Below, one piece after another: positions 51,747 through 64,000 of a stretch of DNA of 64,000 nucleotides. Origin of the DNA: Bacteroidota bacterium (GTDB taxonomy: Bacteria; Bacteroidota; Bacteroidia; Bacteroidales; FEN-979). The position numbers and the translations under genes were made by a program. The notes under the pieces were generated by a model. That model saw nothing but the letters and a program-made list of their open reading frames with translations. It was not told the origin of the DNA and made no database searches. The stretch is from positions 142,315-206,314 of the forward strand of contig JBAXIO010000002.1 of the NCBI GenBank assembly GCA_037138335.1, written 5' to 3'. The first letter of the stretch is position 1, and each line of letters opens with the position of its first letter.

Positions 51747-52833
51747 GCAGGAGAAATATAAAGACCCTTTCAGGGCGACGCTTACAGGCATCATGGACCT
51801 GTTTAAAAAGCAGGTAGCTGTCGGGACCATCAGTGATACCGACAGGCTTGACGGTAAGACCGTGGTTGTTGACGGGGCCAGTTCGGGCCTGGGTTTTGCC
51901 ATTGCTGTTGAAGTTGCCAAACGAGGAGCGAAAACTATCATGGCCTGCAGGAGCGGAATTCCGGCAAAAGGGGAGGAGGTCAAAAAACTCAGCGGGAACC
52001 AGGATGTTCACATGCTGAAGGTTGATTTCTCGGATGCCGTAAGCATTGAAAAGCTCGTGTCGGAATTAAAAGAGAAATTCTCACCTATAGATATCCTGAT
52101 CTGCAATGCAGGTGTGGTACCGAACAAAGCAAGGAAAACGCCCCAGGGGTTTGAAGAGATGTTCATGGTGAATTATTTCTCTAAGTTCCTTTACGTTACA
52201 GCCCTGATCGAAAACGGAAGCTTCGGCAGGATCGGATTTGAGGCCAGGGCGGTAAGGCCCAAGGCCGGTGATGCGCCCACAACCGTTATATCAAAGAACA
52301 CTGATAAGGAAGCCCTCCCTGCCAACCCGGGCATAGTTTCAGAAAATAAGGGAGCAGCCATTCCGAGGATCATTTTCGTTTCCTCCGAATCACACAGGAA
52401 CCCGGCAGCCATAAAATGGGATGATTTCGGGAAGTTCTCACCTTACGGTATCAAGCAGTCAATGGAGCATTACGGCCAGAATAAACTCCTGCTGACAACT
52501 TTTGCCGTGGAATTGTCAAGAAGGCTCAACACAAATGGCCATACTGCAGCTTCGGTGTTTGCCCTATGCCCAGGTCCTGTCAATTCAAACATCGCCAGGG
52601 AAACGCCAAAAGTGTTCCAGCCACTGCTGAAAGTGGTCTTCAGGTTATTTTTCAAGTCGCCCAAAGATGCTGCAGCCCCGGTTATTTATTTTTCCGTATC
52701 AAAGGATGTGGAAGGGAAAGCTTTTAATTACCTTTTTCTTATGAATCGCAAAGACGTGGATTCCAAAGCAATGGATCTGGCCAACGGATTAAAATTATGG
52801 GAAATGTCATCCGCCTTCAGGAAAAATTTGTAA
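51733..52833 (+). CDS. SDR-family oxidoreductase with an internal ~45-aa insertion
   Basis: 'VVVDGASSGLGFAIA', 'ICNAG', 'FVSSESH', 'YGQNKLL' (YxxxK). The start overlaps the sulfotransferase stop by 14 nt. Confidence 0.8.
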   Translation: MEENKQEKYKDPFRATLTGIMDLFKKQVAVGTISDTDRLDGKTVVVDGASSGLGFAIAVEVAKRGAKTIMACRSGIPAKGEEVKKLSGNQDVHMLKVDFSDAVSIEKLVSELKEKFSPIDILICNAGVVPNKARKTPQGFEEMFMVNYFSKFLYVTALIENGSFGRIGFEARAVRPKAGDAPTTVISKNTDKEALPANPGIVSENKGAAIPRIIFVSSESHRNPAAIKWDDFGKFSPYGIKQSMEHYGQNKLLLTTFAVELSRRLNTNGHTAASVFALCPGPVNSNIARETPKVFQPLLKVVFRLFFKSPKDAAAPVIYFSVSKDVEGKAFNYLFLMNRKDVDSKAMDLANGLKLWEMSSAFRKNL

Positions 52834-52895
52834 TTTTGTACTTTAATTAAAATTTGAACGTTTATTAAATGTTAAATCATAAAACAGAACAATCG

Positions 52896-53150
52896 ATGAA
52901 AAAAGTAACATTATTTGTTGGAATGATTGCCATGGCAGCATTCTTATCAACCTCAGTTTTAGCTCAGGATAAAACCCAGGATAAAACCAAGGAAGCCAAG
53001 CCTGCAACAACCCAGGCAGCTCCTGCAAAGACCGATGCAAAAGCTCCTGCTTCAAAGGAAGCCTGCAAGCCCGGTTGCACAATGCATAAAGAAGGAAGCA
53101 AATGCTGCGATAAAGACAAGAAAACAACAGCTACTCCTGAAAAGAAGTAA
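52896..53150 (+). CDS. Small secreted Lys/Ala/Thr-rich protein with a C-x3-C-x8-CC cluster
   Basis: The ATG at 52896 gives the signal peptide 'MKKVTLFVGMIAMAAFLSTSVLA'. The mature protein (~61 aa) contains 'CKPGCTMHKEGSKCC'. A strong terminator follows. Confidence 0.5.
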   Translation: MKKVTLFVGMIAMAAFLSTSVLAQDKTQDKTKEAKPATTQAAPAKTDAKAPASKEACKPGCTMHKEGSKCCDKDKKTTATPEKK

Positions 53151-53174
53151 GGTGTCATACCTTTTAATAAAAAA

Positions 53175-53202
53175 GCCCCGTCAATTCAGCGGGGCTTTTT
53201 TT
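53175..53202. terminator. Bidirectional intrinsic terminator
   Basis: 'AAAAAA-GCCCCG-TCAATTCAG-CGGGGC-TTTTTTT' between convergent genes (stops at 53150 and 53219). Confidence 0.72.
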
Positions 53203-53218
53203 ATGGTTTGACCGGGGC

Positions 53219-53956
53219 TTATTTCTTCAAACCGGCGTCTTCCAGGATGAGTTCATAGAAGTACCCTGCGCCAAAATCCTTGTCTAGAGTTACTTTTCCT
53301 TCAAAGATTACTGTTTCCCCTACTTTTACCATGTCCTGGGTGGTAATTGTAAGATCGAAGTTCTCGCCTTCCTTGCTGCCGTCCTGGAGATGAACCCAGT
53401 TCTTGTCCATGATGCCTGGTGAAAATTTCACAACCTCTCCCCTGATCTTTACGGTTTTCCCTTCAAAGTTCTTGCGCCCTTTATATAGTTCTGCAATTGT
53501 TACTCCCCCGGCAAGCTTTGGAACAGAGATCCCTTTATGTTCAACCGCGGGCATTTTACCTGCTGAGGCTGCCTGGTGCATCTGGCCCATCTGCTGGTCG
53601 GCCGGCGCCTGGTTGGCAGCAAGGATGGGTTCTGATGAGAAATCCTGGATAAAAAATATGCTGCGGAAAGTCCGTTTAAGTTCTTTGCTTGTAAACTCCT
53701 GCATTTCAGATCCCTGGGACCAATAATAAGTGTCACCCGCTTTAATATCCATTTTTGCAACGGCAACCCAGTAGTCCCTTCCTTCGGCTGAAACCCTTGC
53801 ATAGGTGTATGCGCTGGTTTGTATGACTTCTTCGGCTTTAACCTGGTGGGCATTGGGTGCAAGACCAGCCGTTTTTTTATCGCTCCCGTTCTGGCACGAA
53901 AGCAGGAGTGAAGAGATTAATGCTACCAGAAAGAGGCTTCTATAGTGGATTTTCAT
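53219..53956 (-). CDS. Hypothetical lipoprotein with two OB-fold-like halves
   Basis: 245 aa. Lipobox 'LISSLLLSCQNG'. The C-terminal half, 'GKTVKIRGEVVKF...NWVHLQDGS...FDLTITT...VGETVIFEGKVTLDKDFG', resembles BOF/YgiW-type OB folds. The N-terminal half has a similar pattern. Confidence 0.5.
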   Translation of the reverse strand: MKIHYRSLFLVALISSLLLSCQNGSDKKTAGLAPNAHQVKAEEVIQTSAYTYARVSAEGRDYWVAVAKMDIKAGDTYYWSQGSEMQEFTSKELKRTFRSIFFIQDFSSEPILAANQAPADQQMGQMHQAASAGKMPAVEHKGISVPKLAGGVTIAELYKGRKNFEGKTVKIRGEVVKFSPGIMDKNWVHLQDGSKEGENFDLTITTQDMVKVGETVIFEGKVTLDKDFGAGYFYELILEDAGLKK

Positions 53957-53963
53957 ATCTTTG
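53956..53963 (+). promoter_or_regulatory. Candidate -7 promoter element (TATCTTTG) upstream of the cytochrome locus
   Basis: Exact TAnnTTTG match 62 nt upstream of the ATG at 54025. The same 'ATATCTTTGTAT' string recurs at 63871. No clear -33 element. Confidence 0.28.
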
Positions 53964-54024
53964 TATATTGATATTTATGTGCGCAAAGCTATGAATTTCC
54001 TTTGGTTTAAAAAATCTCCGCCAC

Positions 54025-54891
54025 ATGTCGTACATTCATAAAGCATACATTTTTGCTCTGAGTGTTGTTGTTCTTCTCACACTGGGTTTCCTTTTTTATC
54101 ATGGGTATACATATTACAGGCTCCCAATAGAGGAAAGGTTTTTTCACCAGGGCCACGCCCTGTTGAAGCCGGGTGGAAATTGGGGGCATGGATTCGGCAT
54201 TATTGGTTCCCTTTGCATGATATTTGGCATTGTTCTTTATATGATCAGGAAAAGAAGCAGGTTCCTGGCCCGGTTTGGGCTATTAAAGTATTGGCTGGAG
54301 TTTCATATATTTCTCTGCACCCTTGGGCCTGTATTAGTTCTGTTTCATACTTCATTTAAATTCGGGGGGCTTGTTGCAGTCAGCTTTTGGAGCATGGTCG
54401 CAGTTTTCCTGAGCGGAGTCGTGGGCCGGTTTATATATATTCAGATTCCAAGGACAATAGAAGGGCGTGAATTGAGTTTAAATGAAGTAAGGGATATGAA
54501 AAGTAATATCGGAACGATCTTATCCGAATCCTATAATCTCGACGAAGAAAGCTACAACCTTATAATTGACTCAACCAAAAAGAAAGTTGAATTATACCAG
54601 AGCAACCTATTCTTAAAATTTACAAGGAAGTATTTCGATGACCGTAAGACTATCAGCAGGGTGAAAGCTGCTGTGAAGAAGAATAATCTTTCGCGGGCCG
54701 ACAGGAAAGAAGTTGTGAACCTTGTAAAGCATGATATAACCTTGAACAGACGTATTGACAGGCTGGTTACGATGCAGAACCTTTTTAAATACTGGCACGT
54801 CGCACACCTGCCATTTGCAATTGTGATGCTTATCATCATGGTAATTCATGTAAGCGTGACTATAGTGCTTGGTTACCGCTGGATCTTTTAA
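54025..54891 (+). CDS. Five-helix membrane protein with histidines in or near the helices and a ~100-aa charged cytoplasmic loop
   Basis: 288 aa. Helices carry 'WGHGFGIIG', 'LEFHIFLCT', 'VLFHTSF', 'YWHVAHLPF', 'MVIHVS'. Possible heme-b or ferric-reductase-like role, but this is inference only. Confidence 0.6.
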   Translation: MSYIHKAYIFALSVVVLLTLGFLFYHGYTYYRLPIEERFFHQGHALLKPGGNWGHGFGIIGSLCMIFGIVLYMIRKRSRFLARFGLLKYWLEFHIFLCTLGPVLVLFHTSFKFGGLVAVSFWSMVAVFLSGVVGRFIYIQIPRTIEGRELSLNEVRDMKSNIGTILSESYNLDEESYNLIIDSTKKKVELYQSNLFLKFTRKYFDDRKTISRVKAAVKKNNLSRADRKEVVNLVKHDITLNRRIDRLVTMQNLFKYWHVAHLPFAIVMLIIMVIHVSVTIVLGYRWIF

Positions 54892-54900
54892 GTTTTAAGA

Positions 54901-56238
54901 ATGGAAACCCTTTTCGAAAACATCCTGATCTACTCTGTTGTATTTATTTTTTGCCTTGCGGTAGTAATTCTCTATCTGCGCAGGCAAAAGAGGAATTCCA
55001 ATCTTGTAGAGGAAAAGATATTAAAAGCCAAGCAGGATGGCTTGTATGAACCGGTATCACTGCATCCTGTCGTTGACCCGAATACCTGCATTCAAACCGG
55101 TGCATGCATCTCTGCATGTCCCGAGAAAGATATCCTGGGCATAAGGGACGGGAAGGCAACCACGATCAATGCATCGCACTGCATAGGGCATGGGGCCTGT
55201 TTCCATGCCTGTCCCACCCAGGCAATTTCCTTATGCATTGGTACTGAAAAACGAGGGGTTGAACTGCCTCATGTAAATTATAATTTTGAGACAAATATCC
55301 AGGGGATATATATTGCAGGTGAACTTGGTGGAATGGGCCTTATCAAGAATGCTGTCGAACAGGGCAGGCAGGCCGTTGAAAATATTGTCAAGGCTGGCAG
55401 GAAGCATCATAATGCCTCTTATGACCTGATCGTTGTTGGCGCTGGCCCTGCAGGCATTTCGGCCTCCCTGAATGCAAAAAAGCATAACCTTAACTGCCTT
55501 ATGCTAGAACAGGAGACCCTTGGCGGAACTGTCTTCAATTTTCCCAGAGCGAAAATCGTCATGACTTCACCTATGGACTTGCCGCTTCACGGCAAGCTGA
55601 AACTATATGAGACCAGCAAATCTGAACTCCTGGAGTTATGGAATACCGTTATTCAGAAGAATGATATCAGCATCAAGGAAAATTCAAAAGTCGAATCGAT
55701 TGTTCAGGAAAACGGGAATTTCAGGGTTGAGACCCTGAATGGTGAAAAATACACCTCGCGTTTCGTTTTGCTTGCAATAGGCAGGAGGGGAACTCCCAGG
55801 AAACTGAACATTCCCGGTGAGGGACTGGAGAAAGTTGCCTACCGTATGCTTGAACCCGAGATTATCAGCGGAAAAGAAATTATTGTAGTGGGTGGGGGGG
55901 ACTCGGCCATAGAGTCGGCTTTGCTTCTTGCTCCCCAAAACAAAGTTATTCTTTCATACAGGGGGGATGCCTTTAGCCGTCTCAAACCGCAAAACAAAGA
56001 GAATTTAGATGAGGCTGTTGAAAAGGGACTGGTTGATGTAAGGCTGAATACTAACCTTGAATCCATTGAACCGGATGAAATAACCCTGGTATCCGGAGGA
56101 GCAGGAGAGGAAAAGACCAGATTGAGAAATGACCTGGTTTATATTTTTGCCGGCGGTGAGCTTCCAACGGAGTTTTTAAAAAAAGTAGGATTGCAGATAA
56201 CTAAAAAATTCGGGGAGGCAGTACTGAAGCATCGATAG
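54901..56238 (+). CDS. Membrane-anchored 2x[4Fe-4S] ferredoxin domain fused to an FAD/NAD(P)-binding thioredoxin-reductase/YpdA-like oxidoreductase
   Basis: 445 aa. N-terminal TM helix. 'CIQTGACISACP' and 'CIGHGACFHACP' cluster motifs. Rossmann motifs 'DLIVVGAGPAGISASL' and 'IIVVGGGDSAIESAL'. Confidence 0.82.
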   Translation: METLFENILIYSVVFIFCLAVVILYLRRQKRNSNLVEEKILKAKQDGLYEPVSLHPVVDPNTCIQTGACISACPEKDILGIRDGKATTINASHCIGHGACFHACPTQAISLCIGTEKRGVELPHVNYNFETNIQGIYIAGELGGMGLIKNAVEQGRQAVENIVKAGRKHHNASYDLIVVGAGPAGISASLNAKKHNLNCLMLEQETLGGTVFNFPRAKIVMTSPMDLPLHGKLKLYETSKSELLELWNTVIQKNDISIKENSKVESIVQENGNFRVETLNGEKYTSRFVLLAIGRRGTPRKLNIPGEGLEKVAYRMLEPEIISGKEIIVVGGGDSAIESALLLAPQNKVILSYRGDAFSRLKPQNKENLDEAVEKGLVDVRLNTNLESIEPDEITLVSGGAGEEKTRLRNDLVYIFAGGELPTEFLKKVGLQITKKFGEAVLKHR

Positions 56239-56289
56239 ATTGCCAGGTAATCAGCCACTTCCGGATTCAATATATATACCATCACTACT

Positions 56290-57879
56290 ATGCGGAGAAT
56301 ATTTTTATTAAATATTTTCTTGTGGGTACTCTTGCCATCCCTCCCCTTGATCGCACAGATCTCACCCGGGAAACTGGCTTCGGTTCATTCTCACCTGGAA
56401 GGCATCTCCAACTGCACCAATTGCCATACCTTGGGCGACAAGGTCACCAATGACAAATGTCTTTCCTGCCATACCGAGCTTAAAGCCCGCCTTGACCTTC
56501 ACAAAGGGTATCATGCCTCTTTCGAGGTAAAAGGCAAAAACTGCACTTCCTGCCATAGTGATCATCATGGCCTGGCATTTCAGATCATTCGTTTTGACAA
56601 GGAGAAATTCAATCATACTCTTACCGGCTACCCTTTATCAGGAGCCCATGCAAAGAAAGTTTGCAAAGATTGCCATAAGCCTGACTTTATCAGTAACAGC
56701 AAGATAAAAAGCAAAAAATTCACTTACCTTGGCCTGAATACCAACTGTTTGCCCTGCCATAAGGATTATCATCAAAAAACATTGACGGCTCCATGCCAGA
56801 GTTGCCATGGAGATGCCTCCTTTAAACCGGCCACTAATTTCAATCATGCTTCGACTAAATTCTCACTCCAGGGAATGCACCAGACTGTTCCCTGCATCAA
56901 ATGCCACCCGGTCACTGTTACCAATAATGTTAATTTCCAGAAGTTTGCTGGGGTGCAATTTAAGCAGTGTTCCAGTTGTCATCCCGATCCGCATCATGGC
57001 CAGTTCGGAGTGAATTGCATGTCGTGCCATTCCGAAACTTCCTTCCATACGGTAAAAGGGATAAGCAACTTTGACCACGCTAAAACAAGGTACCCCCTTG
57101 AGAATAAGCATCAGGCAGTCGCCTGCAAATCCTGCCATAAGAATAATATCACCGACCCTGTTAAACACGAACGCTGCATCGACTGCCATACCGATTACCA
57201 TTACGGACAGCTCGCAAAGCAAGGGGTTGTGCCCGATTGTTCGGGTTGTCACACGACCAAAGGTTTCACAGGGGCTTCATTTACAATTGAGCAGCATAAT
57301 ACTGCGAATTTCAAGTTGCAGGGTGCCCATCTTGCAACCCCGTGTTTCGCCTGCCATAAAAAAAAGGAAAAATGGAGTTTCAGGCAGATCGGGATGCTTT
57401 GTGCCGATTGCCATAAGGACGTTCACGCAGGCTATATCAATAAAAAATACTATCCCGGAAATAATTGTGAAATCTGTCATAACCCTTCACTTTGGGGCAG
57501 TGTAAGCTTTGACCATTCACAAACACAGTTTGCAATTACAGGATCTCATGCAACTATCAGCTGCCGCGCCTGTCATTTTAAGAAGGATAGTACAGGAACT
57601 GAACACCAGCAATTTGCCGATATGCAGACCAACTGTTCGGGCTGCCATAAGGATAATCACAACCGGCAGTTTGAAACGAACGGAATAACTGATTGTTTGC
57701 GCTGTCATAATGCCAGTCTCTGGAAGATTGCAAATTTTGATCATAATAAAACGGCATTTAAACTTGACGGGAAGCACCAGAGTGTTCCCTGCGCCAAATG
57801 CCATAAAACGGTAACGGAACAGAATATTGCTTATGTACTTTATAAAATAAAGGATACAAGATGCGAAAGTTGTCATTAA
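56290..57879 (+). CDS. Periplasmic multiheme c-type cytochrome, 20 CXXCH motifs
   Basis: 529 aa with a Sec signal peptide and no lipobox. I counted 20 CXXCH motifs. Six 'F(D/N)H...(F/Y).L.G.H....C..CH' c3/c7-like units. The protein ends exactly on 'CESCH'. Confidence 0.92.
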   Translation: MRRIFLLNIFLWVLLPSLPLIAQISPGKLASVHSHLEGISNCTNCHTLGDKVTNDKCLSCHTELKARLDLHKGYHASFEVKGKNCTSCHSDHHGLAFQIIRFDKEKFNHTLTGYPLSGAHAKKVCKDCHKPDFISNSKIKSKKFTYLGLNTNCLPCHKDYHQKTLTAPCQSCHGDASFKPATNFNHASTKFSLQGMHQTVPCIKCHPVTVTNNVNFQKFAGVQFKQCSSCHPDPHHGQFGVNCMSCHSETSFHTVKGISNFDHAKTRYPLENKHQAVACKSCHKNNITDPVKHERCIDCHTDYHYGQLAKQGVVPDCSGCHTTKGFTGASFTIEQHNTANFKLQGAHLATPCFACHKKKEKWSFRQIGMLCADCHKDVHAGYINKKYYPGNNCEICHNPSLWGSVSFDHSQTQFAITGSHATISCRACHFKKDSTGTEHQQFADMQTNCSGCHKDNHNRQFETNGITDCLRCHNASLWKIANFDHNKTAFKLDGKHQSVPCAKCHKTVTEQNIAYVLYKIKDTRCESCH

Positions 57880-59816
57880 TCCTCCTGCTCGTGCAATTAT
57901 TTCCGCTGATGGCGTTCAGGTTGATGGCCGATTCACCACACGGCAAGGATTTTAAGCTAAGCTGTGATCTTTGTCATAGTTCAAAAGGGTGGAGTTTCGA
58001 TAAATCAATATACGCTTTCGATCATAATAGAACCGCTATGCCCCTTAACGGCCAGCACCAGGTGATCAGCTGCAGGCAATGCCATAAAAGTCTAGTTTTC
58101 TCTGAAGCTAAAACAGCCTGCGTGGATTGCCATACCGATATGCATAATCAGACTGTAGGGCCCGAATGCGGAAGGTGCCATACATCATCTTCCTGGATCG
58201 TAGAGAACATAACTGAGATGCACCAGAAAAGCAGGTTCCCACTTATTGGCCCGCATTACACTCCCGACTGTTCACGCTGCCATCCTTCGGCCTCCATGCT
58301 CAGGTTTGAGCCCCAGGGCGTAGAATGTTACGACTGCCATTCGAAAGATTATCTTGCCGCCACAAAGCCCAATCATGTCCAGGGCGGGTATTCAAAGAAT
58401 TGCGTGGAATGCCATTCAATTTTTAATAACACATGGAATACGACCAATGTAAATCACGATTTTTTCCCGCTTAAAAACGGGCACGCCATCAGTGATTGCG
58501 GGCAATGCCATGCAAATGGCAATTATTCCAACCTGTCAAAAGAATGTGTTTCCTGCCACCAGTCAAATTACAATGCAACTTCCAACCCGAATCATACCAC
58601 TGCCGGTTTCCCTGTGACGTGCAGCGATTGCCATACCAACATGCCTGGATGGAAACCTGCAACATTTACATCGCATGATGCCCAATTTTTCCCGGTTTAT
58701 TCCGGAAAACATGCAGGGACCTGGAATGCCTGTTCGGAATGTCATACGACCCCGGGCAGCCTTAAAACTTTCAGTTGCATCGATTGCCATGCTCATAACC
58801 AGGCCGATATGGACAGCAAACATAACGCAGTAGGAGGGTATTCCTATGCAAGCCTGCCTTGTTATGAATGCCATCCAACAGGAAGTGTTTCAGGAGCTTT
58901 TAATCATAATAACGGCGGCTTCCCTCTGACCGGGGCTCATATTACAACCCCATGCCTGCAATGTCATGCCAGTGGGTTCCAGGGTACACCAACAGACTGC
59001 TTTGCCTGCCACCAGGCAAGTTATAATACAACTATAAATCCGAACCACCCGGCAAAGAACATTCCGAATACCTGCGCTACCTGCCATTCCACAGCCCCCG
59101 GGTGGAAACCAGCAACATTTGCTATACACGGCAATTATTATCCGTTAACGGGAGCTCATACCACCGTGGCCTGCGCCACCTGCCATAACGGCAATTACAA
59201 CACTACACCGAATACCTGCGCCGGATGCCATCAGGCTAATTACAACGCAACCACAAATCCGAATCACGCAAGCCTGGGTATCCCAAATAACTGCAATAAC
59301 TGCCATACAACCAATCCCGGCTGGAAACCTGCTACTTTCGCGATTCACAATAATTATTATGTGCTGCAGGGCGCCCACACAACACTCTCATGTACAGCCT
59401 GCCATACCGGTAATTATACCAGTGCGCCGACCACCTGCGTAGGATGCCATCTTGCAAATTATAACCAGACTACCAATCCGAACCATACAGCAGCCCAGTT
59501 TCCTACCGACTGCGCTTCATGTCATTCACAAACTGCATGGACCCCTGCTTCGTTCAACCATGACGGGTCATATTTCCCTATTTATTCAGGGAAACACAAG
59601 AATAAATGGAACCTGTGTTCCGACTGCCACCCGAATCCCAGCAGTTTCCAGGTATTCACCTGCACTACGTCCTGTCATCCGCAGTCTTCAATGGATAATC
59701 ATCACCAGGGTGTTTCAGGGTATTCATACAACAGCCCAGCCTGTTACAGTTGCCATCCTACCGGCAATAGTGGAAAAATGTTCCAGAGACAGGATAACTT
59801 TTTGAGAAAGGAATAA
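57861..59816 (+). CDS. Periplasmic or outer-membrane-associated multiheme c-type cytochrome, 24 CXXCH + 1 CX3CH
   Basis: 651 aa with a signal peptide and no lipobox. Heme motifs counted by eye. Recurrent 'C..CH.(A/S)NYN.T.NPNH' blocks. The start overlaps the upstream cytochrome gene by 19 nt. Confidence 0.92.
   Translation: MRKLSLILLLVQLFPLMAFRLMADSPHGKDFKLSCDLCHSSKGWSFDKSIYAFDHNRTAMPLNGQHQVISCRQCHKSLVFSEAKTACVDCHTDMHNQTVGPECGRCHTSSSWIVENITEMHQKSRFPLIGPHYTPDCSRCHPSASMLRFEPQGVECYDCHSKDYLAATKPNHVQGGYSKNCVECHSIFNNTWNTTNVNHDFFPLKNGHAISDCGQCHANGNYSNLSKECVSCHQSNYNATSNPNHTTAGFPVTCSDCHTNMPGWKPATFTSHDAQFFPVYSGKHAGTWNACSECHTTPGSLKTFSCIDCHAHNQADMDSKHNAVGGYSYASLPCYECHPTGSVSGAFNHNNGGFPLTGAHITTPCLQCHASGFQGTPTDCFACHQASYNTTINPNHPAKNIPNTCATCHSTAPGWKPATFAIHGNYYPLTGAHTTVACATCHNGNYNTTPNTCAGCHQANYNATTNPNHASLGIPNNCNNCHTTNPGWKPATFAIHNNYYVLQGAHTTLSCTACHTGNYTSAPTTCVGCHLANYNQTTNPNHTAAQFPTDCASCHSQTAWTPASFNHDGSYFPIYSGKHKNKWNLCSDCHPNPSSFQVFTCTTSCHPQSSMDNHHQGVSGYSYNSPACYSCHPTGNSGKMFQRQDNFLRKE
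58999..59655 (+). repeat. Three in-frame tandem 73-aa (219-nt) triheme modules
   Basis: Module starts at 58999, 59218 and 59437: 'C.(A/G)CH.ANYN.T.NPNH....(I/F)P..C..CH...(P)GW.PA.F..H...Y.(L).G.H.....C..CH'. A more diverged copy starts at 58546. Confidence 0.8.
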
Positions 59817-59823
59817 ACGCCGG

Positions 59824-61476
59824 ATGAGATATTTTCTGCCCGTATTTTTCTTTCTATTCTCAGTATTCGCCGTGAGAGGTCAAACTGCAGGTATTACAGA
59901 AGAGGGGACTGTCACATTTATCAGTTCCCAGAATGTATATGTCAGGTTTATTTCAACCTCCCATATAAAGCAGGGTGATACTTTATATATCACAATCGGA
60001 AATAAGCAAGTACCTTCCCTTATTGTCAGGGACCTTTCATCGATCTCCTGTGTTTGCAGCCAGGTTTCATCAAATGCCGCAGCGGTTGGCGACAGGGTCT
60101 ATTTCAGGACCATGGAAGTAAAGGCTGTAAAACCGGCTGAACCTGCCCCGCCACCTGCAGTTGCGCAAGCCGGGAAGAAGCCCGATTCCACTGCCGTTGT
60201 TGCTGTTAGTGCAGTAACTCCAGCCGTGGGAAATCCTAAAGCCAGGGTAAGCAGGCAAGCCATTCACGGGTTTTTCCAGATCGCCTCCTATACCGATTTT
60301 TCAAATAATGCTTCTACCGCCCAACGGATGAAGTATACCTTCTCCCTGATCGGAAGGAACCTGGGAAATACGAACCTTTCGACCGAAATATTCCTGTCAT
60401 TCAATCACAGCAACACTAACTGGAACGAAATACAATCGGATATTTTCAACGGGCTGAAAATCTACAATCTGGATTTTAACTATGATTTCGGAACGAAAGC
60501 AAGCCTTCTCATTGGCCGTAAGATAAATCCCAAACTTTCAAACATGGGGGCTAACGACGGATTGCAGTTTGAGTTGAAGTTCAAACCGCTCAGTATCGGG
60601 TTGATCGCCGGGTTCAGACCCGATTATACCGACTATAGTTTCAATGCAAGCCTGTTTCAGTTCGGAGCATACCTGTACAATGAAACCCGAGCCAGGTCAG
60701 GGAGGACAATGCAAACCACCCTTGCCTTTATCAACCAGACCAATAACTGGAATACCGACCGCAGGTTTCTTTACCTGCAACATGTTAACACCCTGGTTAA
60801 AAACCTTACGTTTTTCGGATCTGCCGAAATGGATCTTTACAAAGTTGTATTCAACCAGCCTGACAGTACCTATAAATCAGGTAATACATTCAGCCTGACC
60901 AACCTGTATGTTTCGTTAAATTACCGGGTGATAAAGCAGCTCAATCTTTCGTTTTCATACAGTGCAAGGCAGAATGTGGTCTATTATGAGACTTATAAGA
61001 ACCTTCTTGACAAACTTACCGATCCGCAGACCCTTCAAGGTTATACGCTTCAGGCGGTTATAAGGCCTGCCAACAGGCTGGCCATAGGATTGACAGGAGG
61101 TTACCGTTTCGAGAAAGCCGACCCCAGGCCCAGTAAAAATTTTTACGGTTATATAACTTACACCCAGATCCCGGGAATTAATATGGCCGCCACTGCAACA
61201 GTGACTATTTTGCAAACAAGTTATATCAGCGGGAATATATACGGGATCGGACTGTCAAAGGACCTTGTTGGCGGGAAACTGTTTGCCAGCATTTCATACA
61301 GGTATACCGATTACAGTTTCTACAACAATGAGACGAGGGCGATTCAGAATGTTGGTGAAGTTGATCTGAGCTGGAGGATCTGGAAAAAGTTTTCCATGTC
61401 GGTATACTATGAAGGTACTTTTGAAACATCAAATCAGTATAACCGCATCTATGCTCAACTTAACCTTGGTTTTTAA
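59824..61476 (+). CDS. Predicted outer-membrane beta-barrel (porin-like) protein with N-terminal globular domain and Pro/Ala-rich linker
   Basis: 550 aa. Signal peptide 'MRYFLPVFFFLFSVFAVRGQ'. 'KPAEPAPPPAVAQAGKKP' linker. About 400 aa of alternating aromatic/polar strand-like segments. C-terminus 'YAQLNLGF' ends in a terminal Phe. Starts 7 nt after the cytochrome gene. Confidence 0.6.
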   Translation: MRYFLPVFFFLFSVFAVRGQTAGITEEGTVTFISSQNVYVRFISTSHIKQGDTLYITIGNKQVPSLIVRDLSSISCVCSQVSSNAAAVGDRVYFRTMEVKAVKPAEPAPPPAVAQAGKKPDSTAVVAVSAVTPAVGNPKARVSRQAIHGFFQIASYTDFSNNASTAQRMKYTFSLIGRNLGNTNLSTEIFLSFNHSNTNWNEIQSDIFNGLKIYNLDFNYDFGTKASLLIGRKINPKLSNMGANDGLQFELKFKPLSIGLIAGFRPDYTDYSFNASLFQFGAYLYNETRARSGRTMQTTLAFINQTNNWNTDRRFLYLQHVNTLVKNLTFFGSAEMDLYKVVFNQPDSTYKSGNTFSLTNLYVSLNYRVIKQLNLSFSYSARQNVVYYETYKNLLDKLTDPQTLQGYTLQAVIRPANRLAIGLTGGYRFEKADPRPSKNFYGYITYTQIPGINMAATATVTILQTSYISGNIYGIGLSKDLVGGKLFASISYRYTDYSFYNNETRAIQNVGEVDLSWRIWKKFSMSVYYEGTFETSNQYNRIYAQLNLGF

Positions 61477-62747
61477 TGCGCAGAAAATTCGACGTCCTTA
61501 TCGTGGGCGGAGGCCCGGCAGGTGTTTCAACCGCGCTTTGTCTCAGGGATTCCGGGCTTAGTGCGGCGCTTATCGACAAAGCCGTCTTCCCCCGCGAAAA
61601 GATCTGCGGCGACGGTTTAACCCTTGATGTGGTCAAGCAACTGGCCCTGATTTCTGAGGAACTTGCTGCTTCGTTCGGGAATTTTACCTCCAAATGGCCC
61701 TGTTACAGTGCCGAAATATTCTCCCCCGATTACAGTCAGATAAGCATAGCAGTGAGGCCAAAGCAGGAGCAGCGGCCGATGTTCACCTGCCGCCGGGCCG
61801 ATTTCGACAAGTTTCTAATAGACCAGGCAAAAAAGCTTGAAAATATCAGTATTTTTGAGAATACACATCCGCAGAAACTTGTTATTGATAAAGACAAGGT
61901 GCTGCTGGAAGCAGGCGAAGATACCTTTGAAGGCCGCGTTATTGTCGGAGCCGACGGGGTTAATTCTTTCGTTGCAAGGGAACTTGGAGTTGAACGGATT
62001 GGCAGGGGACAGCAGTGTGTGGCCCTCCGGACCTATTATACAGGCTTAAAACCCCTTCGTGAAGGCAGCCAGATCGAGATGTACCTGCCCGTTGAAACAC
62101 TCCCCGGTTATTTATGGATATTTCATCTTGGCGACGGCACTTCGAATGTGGGCGTTGGCATGCCTGCTCCGGTAATCAATAAAAAAGGGATAAACCTGAG
62201 GAAGTGTTTTGAAGGGCTGCTGATGTCAGAACCCCTGAAAAGCCGGCTTGCCGGCGCTATGCGCATGGAAGCTGTGAAGGGGTATACCATCCCCTATGGA
62301 GGACGCAGGCGTTCAATATCTGGCCACAGCTTCCTTTTAGCGGGAGATGCGGCGGCCCTGGTTGACCCGATAAGCGGTGAAGGTGTAGGAAATTCGATCA
62401 GGAGCGGAAGGGTAGCTGCCGGGCATATTATTAATTGTTTCAGGGCGGATGATTTTTCGGCGGGATTTAACAAAGCATACGATGACGAGATATACCGCAG
62501 GATGATGCCCGAGTTTAAGTTTCATATTATGTTAAGGTCCCTGTTAAAATATCCTTCCCTCCTGAATTATTTTGTTGGTACCGCCTCAGGCCACCCCCGT
62601 GTGGGACGCTCCCTCCAAAAGCTTGTCTGGAACCTTGGGATTAATAAATTAGGGTCAAGGATCCGTTTGGTCTTAAGCTTAACGTATATGTTCACCCTCC
62701 AGGGATTATTTGAACCGGTATCCCGCCCTGAAAGAAAAAGGGCGTAA
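61476..62747 (+). CDS. Geranylgeranyl-reductase-family FAD-dependent oxidoreductase
   Basis: 423 aa. 'FDVLIVGGGPAGVSTAL', 'KICGDGL', 'LLAGDAAALVDPISGEGVGNSIRSG'. The ATG shares one base with the upstream stop (TAATG). Confidence 0.85.
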   Translation: MRRKFDVLIVGGGPAGVSTALCLRDSGLSAALIDKAVFPREKICGDGLTLDVVKQLALISEELAASFGNFTSKWPCYSAEIFSPDYSQISIAVRPKQEQRPMFTCRRADFDKFLIDQAKKLENISIFENTHPQKLVIDKDKVLLEAGEDTFEGRVIVGADGVNSFVARELGVERIGRGQQCVALRTYYTGLKPLREGSQIEMYLPVETLPGYLWIFHLGDGTSNVGVGMPAPVINKKGINLRKCFEGLLMSEPLKSRLAGAMRMEAVKGYTIPYGGRRRSISGHSFLLAGDAAALVDPISGEGVGNSIRSGRVAAGHIINCFRADDFSAGFNKAYDDEIYRRMMPEFKFHIMLRSLLKYPSLLNYFVGTASGHPRVGRSLQKLVWNLGINKLGSRIRLVLSLTYMFTLQGLFEPVSRPERKRA

Positions 62748-62757
62748 TTTTACCCTG

Positions 62758-63783
62758 ATGTACATTGTTAGCTTATTCAGGGCTGTTGTATTCGTAAAGC
62801 GGTTTTTCAAAACCCAGGGGGAATTCAATTCACGATTTGTTGATGAGTTTATTGAACCCTTATGCAGAAAGTACGATACACGCCCCGGCACGGAGGTCCT
62901 TCATAAAATCAAAAAATATTACTGTATCGGCGTCCCCGTAGTTTGTGCAGGGTTTGCGAGGATATACGGGAGGGAGCTGACGCCGGAGGAGCGTGAAAAC
63001 GCCACAATGGGAGGGATAATCACCCCTCTCATCGATGACTTTACCGATAAAAACCAGCTTTCGCCAGGTCAGCTGAATACATTATTGTCCTTCTCGGCCC
63101 AGGCCGACCCCCCAACCCTTGAGGAAGCCATAGTCAACGCAATACTTGTAAAGTTATATGAGCGGGTAAGCAGCAGGGAGGGTACGGTGGATGCCTTCAT
63201 GCGGACTTTGCTGGCTCAGCGGGAATCGGCAAGACAGACCCGGAAAGGGCTTCCGCAGTCAGATCTCCTGAAAATAACCATGGATAAAGGAGCCTGGTCG
63301 CTGATATTATACCATTACCTGATAAAGGAAGTGCCCAACCGGCAGACCATCGGCATGATTTACCAGATGGGCGGGGTGCTGCAGATAGCCCAGGATATTT
63401 TTGATGTATATAAGGATTTTCATGAAGGAGTGAACACCCTTGCAAACACTTGCGGAGATTACAGTGAGTTTGAAAAATTTTACCTGGATGAATGCAGGAA
63501 GTTTTGTGCGCTGGCCAGGGCTTTACCTTACAGGAAGTCCGACCTGGAATTCTTCATTGTATTTGCGGCCAACAGCATGGCCAGGGGTATTGTTGCATTG
63601 AGAAAGTTGCAGAAGCTCCAGAGGAAGATGGGAGGTGGAGTGTTGCCATTCCCTGAGATTGAAAGGAGAAAGCTCATCTGCGATATGGAAAAGCCCGTTA
63701 ATTTCCTGAAGATGAACTGGTACGGGTATCTGATACTGGGCAAAAAAGCCAGGGCAGAGATCGTGCCTGGGGAACAGATTTGA
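62758..63783 (+). CDS. Class-1 isoprenoid synthase superfamily protein (squalene/phytoene-synthase-like)
   Basis: Asp-rich motif 'PLIDDFTD' (DDxxD) and second motif 'LQIAQDIFDVYKDFHEG', which resembles 'QLTNILRDVGED' of head-to-head synthases. The ATG at 62758 is preferred over the TTG at 62710. Confidence 0.45.
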   Translation: MYIVSLFRAVVFVKRFFKTQGEFNSRFVDEFIEPLCRKYDTRPGTEVLHKIKKYYCIGVPVVCAGFARIYGRELTPEERENATMGGIITPLIDDFTDKNQLSPGQLNTLLSFSAQADPPTLEEAIVNAILVKLYERVSSREGTVDAFMRTLLAQRESARQTRKGLPQSDLLKITMDKGAWSLILYHYLIKEVPNRQTIGMIYQMGGVLQIAQDIFDVYKDFHEGVNTLANTCGDYSEFEKFYLDECRKFCALARALPYRKSDLEFFIVFAANSMARGIVALRKLQKLQRKMGGGVLPFPEIERRKLICDMEKPVNFLKMNWYGYLILGKKARAEIVPGEQI

Positions 63784-63872
63784 AAACGGCTTCAGGAATT
63801 GCAGGGAGAGGCGTGATTTATCAATACTTATTCACAGTTTCTCATAATCAGTAATGCTATAAATATCTTTGT

Positions 63873-63880
63873 ATTAAATC
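63873..63880 (+). promoter_or_regulatory. Candidate -7 promoter element (TATCTTTG)
   Basis: Exact TAnnTTTG match 50 nt upstream of the ATG at 63931. Confidence 0.28.
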
Positions 63881-63930
63881 AATAATCCTATTCAGGGAAA
63901 ATTGACTGGTTTAATATAAGTCAAGAGATT

Positions 63931-64000
63931 ATGAGAAAATTTTATCTATTGATCCTGTTTAACATTTTCATGCTATCCGGGATTGGTCAAAATAACACAC
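63931..64000 (+). CDS. 5' end of a secreted protein gene (truncated by the window edge)
   Basis: The ATG at 63931 encodes 'MRKFYLLILFNIFMLSGIGQNNT', which looks like a signal peptide. Only 23 codons are visible. Confidence 0.35.
   Translation, partial: MRKFYLLILFNIFMLSGIGQNNT

Follow-up and report, generated by a model that had tools for sequence, protein, structure and literature searches.

A Bacteroidota 20-heme cytochrome that ends within a triheme module and probably continues in the cytochrome encoded by the overlapping next gene

Why would a 20-heme cytochrome stop exactly on a heme-binding motif, and why would the gene for the next cytochrome begin inside that very motif? The question is raised by a stretch of 64,000 nucleotides from a Bacteroidota bacterium (Bacteroidia; Bacteroidales; FEN-979; GenBank assembly GCA_037138335.1, contig JBAXIO010000002.1, positions 142,315 to 206,314 of the forward strand), referred to here as the window and numbered from its first letter. 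Cytochrome A is encoded at 56290-57879, and the start codon of its downstream neighbour, cytochrome B, lies within the last codons of the A gene. The phase of the triheme modules, heme counts of 3n+2 in A and 1+3n in B, the conservation of the junction and the existence of unsplit relatives together indicate that A and B most likely dock end to end. The features of the two genes are as follows, a slash marking a cleavage site or the break between the two polypeptides here and below.

56290-57879, forward strand: cytochrome A, an open reading frame of 529 amino acids with a Sec signal peptide, triheme modules M1-M6 and the first two hemes of M7
57736-57876, forward strand: truncated module 7 of cytochrome A, residues 483-529, reading FDH485...GKH496...CAKCH (heme 19)...YKIKDTR-CESCH (heme 20) and ending on the proximal His of heme b
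57861-57879, forward strand: dual-coding overlap of 19 nt, in which the ATG of cytochrome B (57861-57863) is made of the last base of the Arg524 codon (AGA) and the TG of the Cys525 codon (TGC)
57861-59816, forward strand: cytochrome B, 651 amino acids, with its own n-h-c signal peptide (MRKLSLILLLVQLFPLMAFRLMA/DSPHG...) and 24 CXXCH motifs plus one CX3CH (CTTSCH), giving 25 heme sites
57930-57977, forward strand: mature N-terminus of cytochrome B, DSPHGKDFKLS-CDLCH, corresponding to the missing last third of module 7; H26, 8 residues ahead of the first Cys in the heme-c motif, is a candidate distal ligand

Cytochrome A contains exactly 20 CXXCH motifs, or one per 26.4 residues, as had been counted in a preliminary description of the window made from its letters and open reading frames. 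All 40 of its Cys residues lie within these motifs, and the protein has 47 His and 5 Met. Its predicted signal peptide is MRRIFLLNIFLWVLLPSLPLIA/QISPG, with cleavage at ...PLIA/QISPG, and its C-terminus reads ...KDTRCESCH, followed directly by TAA at 57877-57879. In a word-indexed search cytochrome A had more than 5,000 homologues, most of them in metagenome bins of Bacteroidota, with lengths that peak at 529 amino acids (20 hemes) or about 605 amino acids (23 hemes). Among the best 120 of these, the number of residues after the terminal CXXCH is 0 in 72, 1 in 44, 2 in 3 and 5 in 1, so that the ending on CESCH pointed out in the preliminary description recurs, within one residue, in 116 of 120 homologues. 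In an alignment of 88 sequences all 20 heme motifs are invariant, and so are exactly 20 His residues outside the motifs (H33, 75, 92, 109, 120, 161, 186, 197, 235, 263, 274, 304, 336, 347, 379, 409, 420, 457, 485 and 496), which amounts to one candidate distal ligand per heme. None of the 5 Met residues is conserved in the same alignment, and every heme of A is predicted to be bis-His ligated.

The gene for cytochrome A is present in a single copy in its own genome (4.0 Mb, 97.7% complete). This genome encodes a 699-residue CcmF/NrfE-like heme lyase and a second, 233-residue Cytochrom_C_asm protein (G000:C33:20143-20823, G000:C3:121181-121639), which makes heme attachment to cytochrome A plausible. 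No match to ResB was found among the cytochrome c maturation genes of the genome, and these genes look System-I-like. An AlphaFold2 model of cytochrome A has a mean predicted local distance difference test score (pLDDT) of 79.7 and a predicted TM-score (pTM) of 0.37. A whole-chain fold search of this model against the PDB gave no significant match (best E=2.7), as is expected for a long flexible chain with such a pTM.

The junction between the two genes was compared across related loci. Eighty loci were fetched from species-representative genomes, comprising bins of Bacteroidales, Prolixibacteraceae, Lentimicrobiaceae, Rikenellaceae and Marinilabiliales at 53-85% identity, and every carrier found is a metagenome-assembled genome. 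The junction set (n=80) consists of 79 of these loci and the window itself; L002, in which A is broken, was left out. In the window the overlap reads C-E-S-C-H-stop in the frame of A and M-R-K-L-S-L in the -1 frame of B. In all 80 loci xxA+TGC supplies an ATG where the last heme motif of A has its first Cys: the codon before this Cys ends in A and the Cys codon itself is TGC, while elsewhere in these genes Cys is encoded 1564 times by TGC and 1618 times by TGT. This bias is what selection on the overlapping start would predict, because TGT followed by a Glu or Asp codon would make TGA in the B frame. The ATG frame opens into a cytochrome in 76 loci, and the other four are contig ends or rearranged (L012, L017, L041). 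The overlap is 19, 22, 25 or 34 nt long, a length set only by the 0, 1, 2 or 5 residues that A carries after CH. All 76 B proteins begin M-R/Q-x-L-S, continue into a hydrophobic core and then show P-H-G with the His exactly 8 residues ahead of the first heme Cys. At greater distance, in 19 loci from a sample of genomes of the phylum (38-48% identity), the ATG on this Cys codon is kept in about 14, most of which lead into a B with a signal peptide and PHG, and in all 19 A ends 1-7 residues past CXXCH and B starts with (x)SPHG-CxxCH-W. The start of the next cytochrome 19 nt before the stop of A, noted earlier, is thus a conserved start-in-motif overlap. Tight translational coupling and a stoichiometric complex, proposed at the same time, find support in this conservation (80/80 close and about 14/19 distant loci) and in the collinearity of A and B with single chains described below, and may be regarded as probable.

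Several smaller observations concern the junction set. Among L001-L080, an A that ends exactly on CH is mostly paired with a B that begins D/E-SPHG, and an A that runs one residue further mostly with Q/K-(K)-SPHG; this pairing could reflect compensation of length or charge across the seam, or just clade structure. In L012, L017 and L041 B is displaced, in another frame or without the SPHG start, in L002 A is broken, and in L018 B lies in two pieces; these exceptions are likely assembly errors or decayed copies. One locus (L015) is labelled as an Alphaproteobacteria bin and another (L017) as a Syntrophothermus bin, probably through binning contamination.

Two other explanations of the overlap were considered. 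According to one, a single 45-heme gene has been broken by a frameshift introduced in sequencing or assembly, or has recently been split as a pseudogene. That the reading frames overlap in different phases and that single-chain homologues exist would fit such an origin, and a sequencing error at 57861-57879 was among the events that the preliminary description regarded as fatal to its own account. The same stop, the same ATG within a Cys codon and a full signal peptide of B are, however, shared by 80 of 80 independent assemblies down to 53% identity and by more distant genomes, and 116 of 120 A proteins end within one residue of CXXCH. An artefact is rejected on these grounds, and its probability is practically nil. 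According to the other, a programmed -1 ribosomal frameshift within the overlap would yield an A-B fusion besides A alone. The overlap is conserved and nearly all loci have B in the -1 frame of A, but this relation follows automatically from an ATG placed on xxA+TGY. No slippery heptamer is seen in the 19-nt overlap, a stop in the B frame lies only five codons upstream of the ATG of B in the window, and a fusion would bury the signal peptide of B within a periplasmic heme chain, while natural single chains are without such an insert. Frameshifting is accordingly rejected as well, as very improbable.

The significance of the break becomes apparent when the hemes are counted. If A and mature B are written as one string and cut every three hemes, 15 regular triheme modules with 45 hemes are obtained, of which 6 2/3 modules lie in A and 8 1/3 in B. 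Each module consists of F(D/N)H-x4-(F/Y)xLxGxH-x4-CxxCH (heme a), a variable linker, CxxCH-x-D-x-H (heme b, with a His at +4), a further linker and CxxCH-x3-4-W/F (heme c). The preliminary description had recognised six such units with shorter spacers. Six are indeed present (modules 2-7), but the spacers are x4 rather than x3, and the full form is F(D/N)H-x4-(F/Y)-x-(L/I)-x-(G/N)-x-H-x4-CxxCH; F[DN]H is strict in four of the six, module 5 reads EQH, and module 4 has N in place of G. The polypeptide breaks inside module 7, after heme b, and mature B opens with DSPHGKDFKLS-CDLCH-SSKGW. Read across the seam (CESCH/DSPHGKDFKLS-CDLCH), the linker from heme b to heme c has 11 residues with a His at +4, as in modules 2, 3 and 8. 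Cytochrome B itself is composed of a lone N-terminal heme and eight triheme modules (M8-M15), with about 26 residues per heme.

These counts are not peculiar to the window. A-type proteins have 20, 23 or 26 hemes, that is 3n+2, in every locus (n=100) and in 46 representative sequences from many lineages. B-type proteins have 1+3n heme sites in 73 of 76 complete open reading frames and range from 13 to 67 hemes, while A stays at 20 or 23. Cytochrome B of the window resembles two joined units, one with the lone heme and modules 8-11 (13 hemes, ending CYECHPTG) and one with modules 12-15 (12 hemes, ending CYSCHPTG), and the first of these is like the smallest B proteins of other loci, which have 13 hemes. 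The second unit is without a lone heme, which suggests that the single-heme cap goes with a free N-terminus.

Whether the break divides what is elsewhere one polypeptide can be read from single-chain relatives. Searched exhaustively with phmmer, a set of 1.84 billion cluster representatives yielded 4,130 matches, of which the best 150 were inspected. Among these 150, 54 proteins with an A-type N-terminus carry 3n+2 hemes and 14 carry 3n, and about 10 of the 14 are long single chains of 27-81 hemes, most of them ending in the B-type CYxCHPxG. Homologues fused into one open reading frame with the downstream protein thus exist in other lineages, with 30-81 hemes. Module 7 of the single chains is contiguous and recognisably orthologous, with a YK/RP-L signature before heme b: in P0267 it reads ...CESCH RTIEVLPGRKTSLYRPLPTA CEGCH VDPHAGAFRIGTAS CASCH ATASW, and in the window ...CAKCH KTVTEQNIAYVLYKIKDTR CESCH/DSPHGKDFKLS CDLCH SSKGW. 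The mature N-terminus of B aligns with VDPHAGAF or QDPHLGQL of the unsplit homologues. In BLASTP, a composite of A and B gives single collinear high-scoring pairs that run through the junction, with P0267 (composite 5-734 against 19-813, E=2e-148), P0247 (16-1096 against 20-1075, E=2e-173) and P0271 (1-1096 against 7-1062).

An unrooted maximum-likelihood tree was built from modules 1-6 of 70 A-type proteins. Split and unsplit forms are interleaved in it, and its well-supported branches require at least five changes of state. In one clade (support 100/99) six members are unsplit and six are split, the split ones still carrying an xDxHxGxF tail on A, and an unsplit protein with 30 hemes forms a sister pair with a split one that has 20 (support 100/97). 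The interleaving indicates that fission and fusion at the A/B seam happened repeatedly, which in turn argues that the A/B pair works like a single chain. The repeated transitions and the collinearity with single chains are supported directly, as are the sequence architecture and its conservation; the split and unsplit states thus interconvert and are probably functionally equivalent.

A structural framework for the module is provided by the small c7 cytochromes. Both proteins pass the Pfam model Cytochrome_C7 (PF14522, gathering cut-off 24.8 bits), cytochrome A with 77.5 bits in 4 stretches and cytochrome B with 90.1 bits, and Cytochrom_c3_2 matches cytochrome A with 65 bits. Cytochrome A reaches none of the curated NCBIfam models, and the scores of A and B stay below the cut-offs: for nanowire_3heme (NCBIfam TIGR04257, cut-off 40 bits) cytochrome A has no match and cytochrome B scores 19.6 bits, for the MtrA/DmsE decaheme family (TIGR03508, cut-off 192.2 bits) the scores are 38.3 and 24.9 bits, and for the hexadecaheme HmcA (NF045713, cut-off 400 bits) they are 17.3 and 40.4 bits. 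The closest solved structure in a PDB profile search with cytochrome A is GSU1996 (3OV0, E=1e-6, 31 bits), followed by HmcA and the c7-like 8K9E. The earlier idea of a wire-like chain of small c3/c7-type domains holds for triheme domains, given Cytochrome_C7 scores above the cut-off, strict three-heme periods and GSU1996 as the best solved relative. The relation to GSU1996 is remote: nanowire_3heme is not reached, and an axial Met is not conserved. By its sequence, cytochrome A is expected to work like a c7-domain polymer while standing outside the GSU1996 family as curated.

What cytochrome A shares with GSU1996 is a single chain of c7-like triheme domains in tandem, which makes a linear wire with a length of about 1 nm for each heme. 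The differences lie in size (12 hemes in GSU1996, 20+25 in A and B), in ligation and in organisation, since GSU1996 is unsplit and is without a co-encoded barrel, unlike the A/B pair. GSU1996 has one His-Met heme per domain (PMC10138318), whereas cytochrome A has no conserved Met and 20 invariant candidates for distal His. The near-invariant KKFTYLGL segment of module 2 (56704-56736, residues 139-149 of A, KIKSKKFTYLG) aligns with KRFTMADM and KRYTMLDM of GSU1996, and the axial Met of GSU1996 falls on the nearly invariant Tyr146 of cytochrome A. The third ligand, which stands before heme b in GSU1996, appears to have moved in cytochrome A to the His after heme b.

In the c7 cytochrome PpcA, hemes I and III are served by two His residues that precede heme I, and heme IV by a third ligand. 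By analogy with PpcA-type c7 proteins, and given the alignment of the axial-Met segment of GSU1996 with KKFTYLGL, heme c should have the His that follows heme b as its distal ligand. If this assignment holds, the break between A and B falls in the only three-residue window that leaves the ligands of each heme on one chain, which would explain why A ends exactly on CXXCH. On balance it is slightly favoured that the A/B pair constitutes a naturally split domain, in which two-thirds of a c7-like module at the C-terminus of A and the last third, with its distal His and heme, at the N-terminus of mature B are reassembled non-covalently in the periplasm.

The genes that surround A and B suggest what such a chain would serve.

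54025-54891, forward strand: inner-membrane protein of 288 amino acids with five predicted transmembrane helices (TM1-TM5), W90-x3-H94-x13-H108 in TM3, S130GVVG134 in TM4 and W257-x3-H261-x13-H275 in TM5
54901-56238, forward strand: FeS-flavoprotein with an N-terminal transmembrane anchor, two [4Fe-4S] ferredoxin motifs and a YpdA/TrxR-like FAD/NAD(P)-binding body, the bulk of it predicted to be cytoplasmic
59824-61476, forward strand: outer-membrane protein of 550 amino acids, with a signal peptide, a beta domain at about 26-94, a disordered Pro/Ala linker at 98-141 and a barrel of about 22-24 strands at 146-549, ending ...NLGF

Across the 80 loci these genes occur in the order membrane protein, FeS-flavoprotein, A, B, barrel. 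The membrane protein has a homologue in 77 of 80 loci, conservation of its His, W and SG..G residues among 67 homologues is 95% or higher, and no Pfam or NCBIfam model matches it. The FeS-flavoprotein is present in 78 of 80 loci, always between the membrane protein and A, and matches Pfam Pyr_redox_3 (1.2e-40) and Fer4_10 (6.6e-11) as well as a YpdA-like NCBIfam model (3.4e-47, below the curated cut-off); it is a candidate electron-input enzyme. By their motifs and synteny, the membrane protein and the FeS-flavoprotein resemble a split NOX/ferric-reductase-like path from NAD(P)H to the outside that would bypass the quinone pool. The barrel gene directly follows B in 70 of 80 loci, most of the others being cut by contig ends, and it has more than 2000 unnamed homologues. 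The AlphaFold2 model of the barrel protein (pLDDT 76.9) is matched by Foldseek to FimD/PapC usher pores and to the TonB-dependent receptor PfeA (E 1e-10 to 1e-8, TM-score about 0.4). No strong terminator-like hairpin lies between 54025 and 61476, the only strong terminator being upstream, at 53169-53201, and an Rfam scan of 52500-64000 found no RNA family. About 10% of the genomes sampled from the phylum have the cassette (30 of 301), and they belong to 25 of 144 genera.

The limits of the cassette are drawn by the same comparison. A geranylgeranyl-reductase-family gene downstream shares TAATG with the stop of the barrel gene (region 61476-63783), a coupling that is local and outside the system. 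This gene and the next one, with a DDxxD motif, both of which had been linked to the cluster, occur in 0 of 80 and 1 of 80 related loci and are rejected as members. On the reverse strand at 53219-53956 lies a gene for a 245-residue secreted or lipoprotein-like protein with a weak GW-domain match. In 22 of 80 loci its homologues lie close to the cassette, either ahead of it on the other strand or behind the barrel gene, and the gene may be an accessory one in loose association.

A cassette of this kind is already known from bioinformatic surveys. The inner-membrane protein of PCC3 and PCC4 has been described as a protein of about 300 residues with five transmembrane helices, SGXXG on TM4 and WX3HX13H on TM3 and TM5, and has been likened to a dihaem ferric-reductase domain (He et al. 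2017, PMC5566968); by its motifs, the product of 54025-54891 is a candidate dihaem-b transmembrane electron carrier of this type. The periplasmic multiheme cytochrome of PCC3 carries about 21 hemes and has been suggested to span the periplasm (PMC10734462). PCC3 and the cassette share a list and order of parts: the five-helix protein with SGXXG and two WX3HX13H, a cytochrome of about 20 hemes, a second cytochrome with a large and variable number of hemes, and a large barrel. They also share a very low number of residues per heme (26 here), repeat-built cytochromes and a standing based on bioinformatic prediction (PMC5566968; Gallionellaceae survey, PMC10734462). An adjacent barrel gene, a 20-heme and a many-heme cytochrome with low residue-to-heme ratios and repeats, and the motifs of the membrane protein were all found here. 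Matched by parts, order and motifs as those papers describe them, the gene set is a PCC3-like cassette and evidently of the same kind as PCC3, except that the Bacteroidota version inserts the membrane-anchored flavoprotein with two [4Fe-4S] motifs between the membrane protein and A (78 of 80 loci), unlike PCC3 as described there. Neither of the two papers, in the portions available, contains the split module or the start-in-motif overlap.

A second description concerns Lentimicrobium, in which a "giant PCC cluster" with adjacent 61- and 20-heme cytochromes, without synteny to characterised porin-cytochrome clusters, has been reported (Nat Commun 2026, PMC13013709). As described, it places a 20-heme A beside a 1+60-heme B, and Lentimicrobiaceae loci are among our matches (L009, L019, L029); it is almost certainly the same cassette. 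The paper gives no analysis of module phase, junction or partner genes (PMC13013709). No published description of a split module, of the 3n+2 and 1+3n rule, of a start codon in a heme-binding Cys codon or of repeated fission and fusion at the seam was found in the literature searched.

The established conduits MtrCAB, MtoAB and PioAB and the Geobacter OmaB-OmbB-OmcB system are similar in design, with adjacent genes and a heme chain that crosses a protein interface and is threaded through an outer-membrane barrel. There is no family-level sequence relationship to the cassette, however (DmsE/MtrA model 38 against 192 bits). The best fold matches of the cassette barrel are barrels of usher and TonB-receptor size, and MtrB is absent from the top 50. 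Those conduits have 8-12 hemes per subunit, and their interfaces lie between whole domains, not within a domain.

Taken together, the evidence makes it probable that a trans-envelope conduit of the PCC3 type, encoded by five genes, has cytochrome A as its constant, Sec-exported subunit with 20 hemes, and that A docks end to end with B into a 45-heme chain. A would be exported by Sec, receive 20 hemes and span much of the periplasm, reaching about 20 nm if extended (scaled from 12 nm for the 12 hemes of GSU1996). Its N-terminal end would face the membrane module, and its C-terminal two-heme stub would dock with the N-terminal one-heme piece of B to rebuild module 7, from where B would continue to and through the barrel. 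The embedded start codon would couple the synthesis of A and B, probably in near-equimolar amounts. Electrons would pass from cytoplasmic NAD(P)H or ferredoxin to flavin and FeS centres, to the b-hemes of the membrane protein, to A, B and the barrel, and finally to an acceptor outside, and the reverse direction would be possible. A constant 20-heme A could thereby act as a "periplasm ruler" that accepts interchangeable B extensions of 13-67 hemes. In this scheme the signal-peptide cleavage sites, the pairing of His with heme, the physical docking, the direction of electron flow and the substrates are predicted from sequence.

Several points weigh against this scheme. Docking and the assignment of His to heme rest on homology and counting, and all carriers found are metagenome-assembled genomes, in which the cassette has a predicted function. 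The periplasmic cytochromes of Gallionellaceae PCC3 have 21, 24 or 27 motifs (3n) in their survey (PMC10734462), compared with 20 or 23 (3n+2) here. In other lineages the xDxHxGxF tail is retained by some A-type proteins, and the exact point of the break thus varies. In some distant loci (L085, L087, L088, L091-L093) a third cytochrome of 9-10 hemes follows B and also starts with a signal peptide and (S)PH-x7-CxxCH-W, although B ends on a complete module there. This third cytochrome may serve A as an alternative partner or act as a generic connector, and the PH-x7-CxxCH N-terminus could accordingly be a generic cap or connector and not the specific complement of A.

The last point is also the strength of an alternative in which a single operon encodes A and B as independent cytochromes, the overlap reflects compact packing, and the end hemes are generic contacts that meet several partners in transient collisions, with no rebuilt module and no stable complex. 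The fused B of the window (13+12 hemes) agrees with it too, since its second unit is without a lone heme and the cap is thus tied to a free N-terminus. Against it, the break falls at the orthologous position of a module that is intact in collinear single-chain relatives, the 3n+2 and 1+3n counts are complementary in 73 of 76 loci, fission and fusion recur at this very junction, and an incomplete triheme core, two-thirds of one with a heme face left exposed, is unlikely as a final state. Independent cytochromes are therefore considered unlikely. In a further alternative the A-B chain would be a periplasmic electron store (a capacitor) or an inward uptake wire instead of an outward conduit. Polymers of the GSU1996 type have been discussed as capacitors (PMC10138318), PCC3 was first proposed for Fe(II) oxidisers with inward electron flow (PMC5566968), and heme chains are reversible. 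The conserved barrel gene right after B and the cytoplasm-facing NAD(P)-type flavoprotein fit a trans-envelope path, many carriers are Bacteroidales of anaerobic fermenter type, in which an electron sink makes sense, and the Lentimicrobium with the 61+20-heme cluster was recovered only from incubations with conductive particles (PMC13013709). A store or uptake wire is for these reasons judged rather improbable, and a trans-envelope conduit with A and B joined end to end is preferred.

Bacteroidota and their relatives are abundant fermenters of sediments, lakes, digesters and bioelectrochemical biofilms, and the cassette bears on whether and how they export electrons. The analysis of the junction gives a wiring diagram with a polarity, in which the N-terminus of A would lie at the inner membrane, the C-terminus of A would meet the N-terminus of B, and the C-terminal end of B would lie at or in the barrel. 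It also provides rules for annotation that can be used to spot assembly breaks: A has 3n+2 hemes, B has 1+3n hemes, and the ATG of B lies on a Cys codon of the last motif of A. The split module, if true, would be a natural design for joining heme wires end to end.

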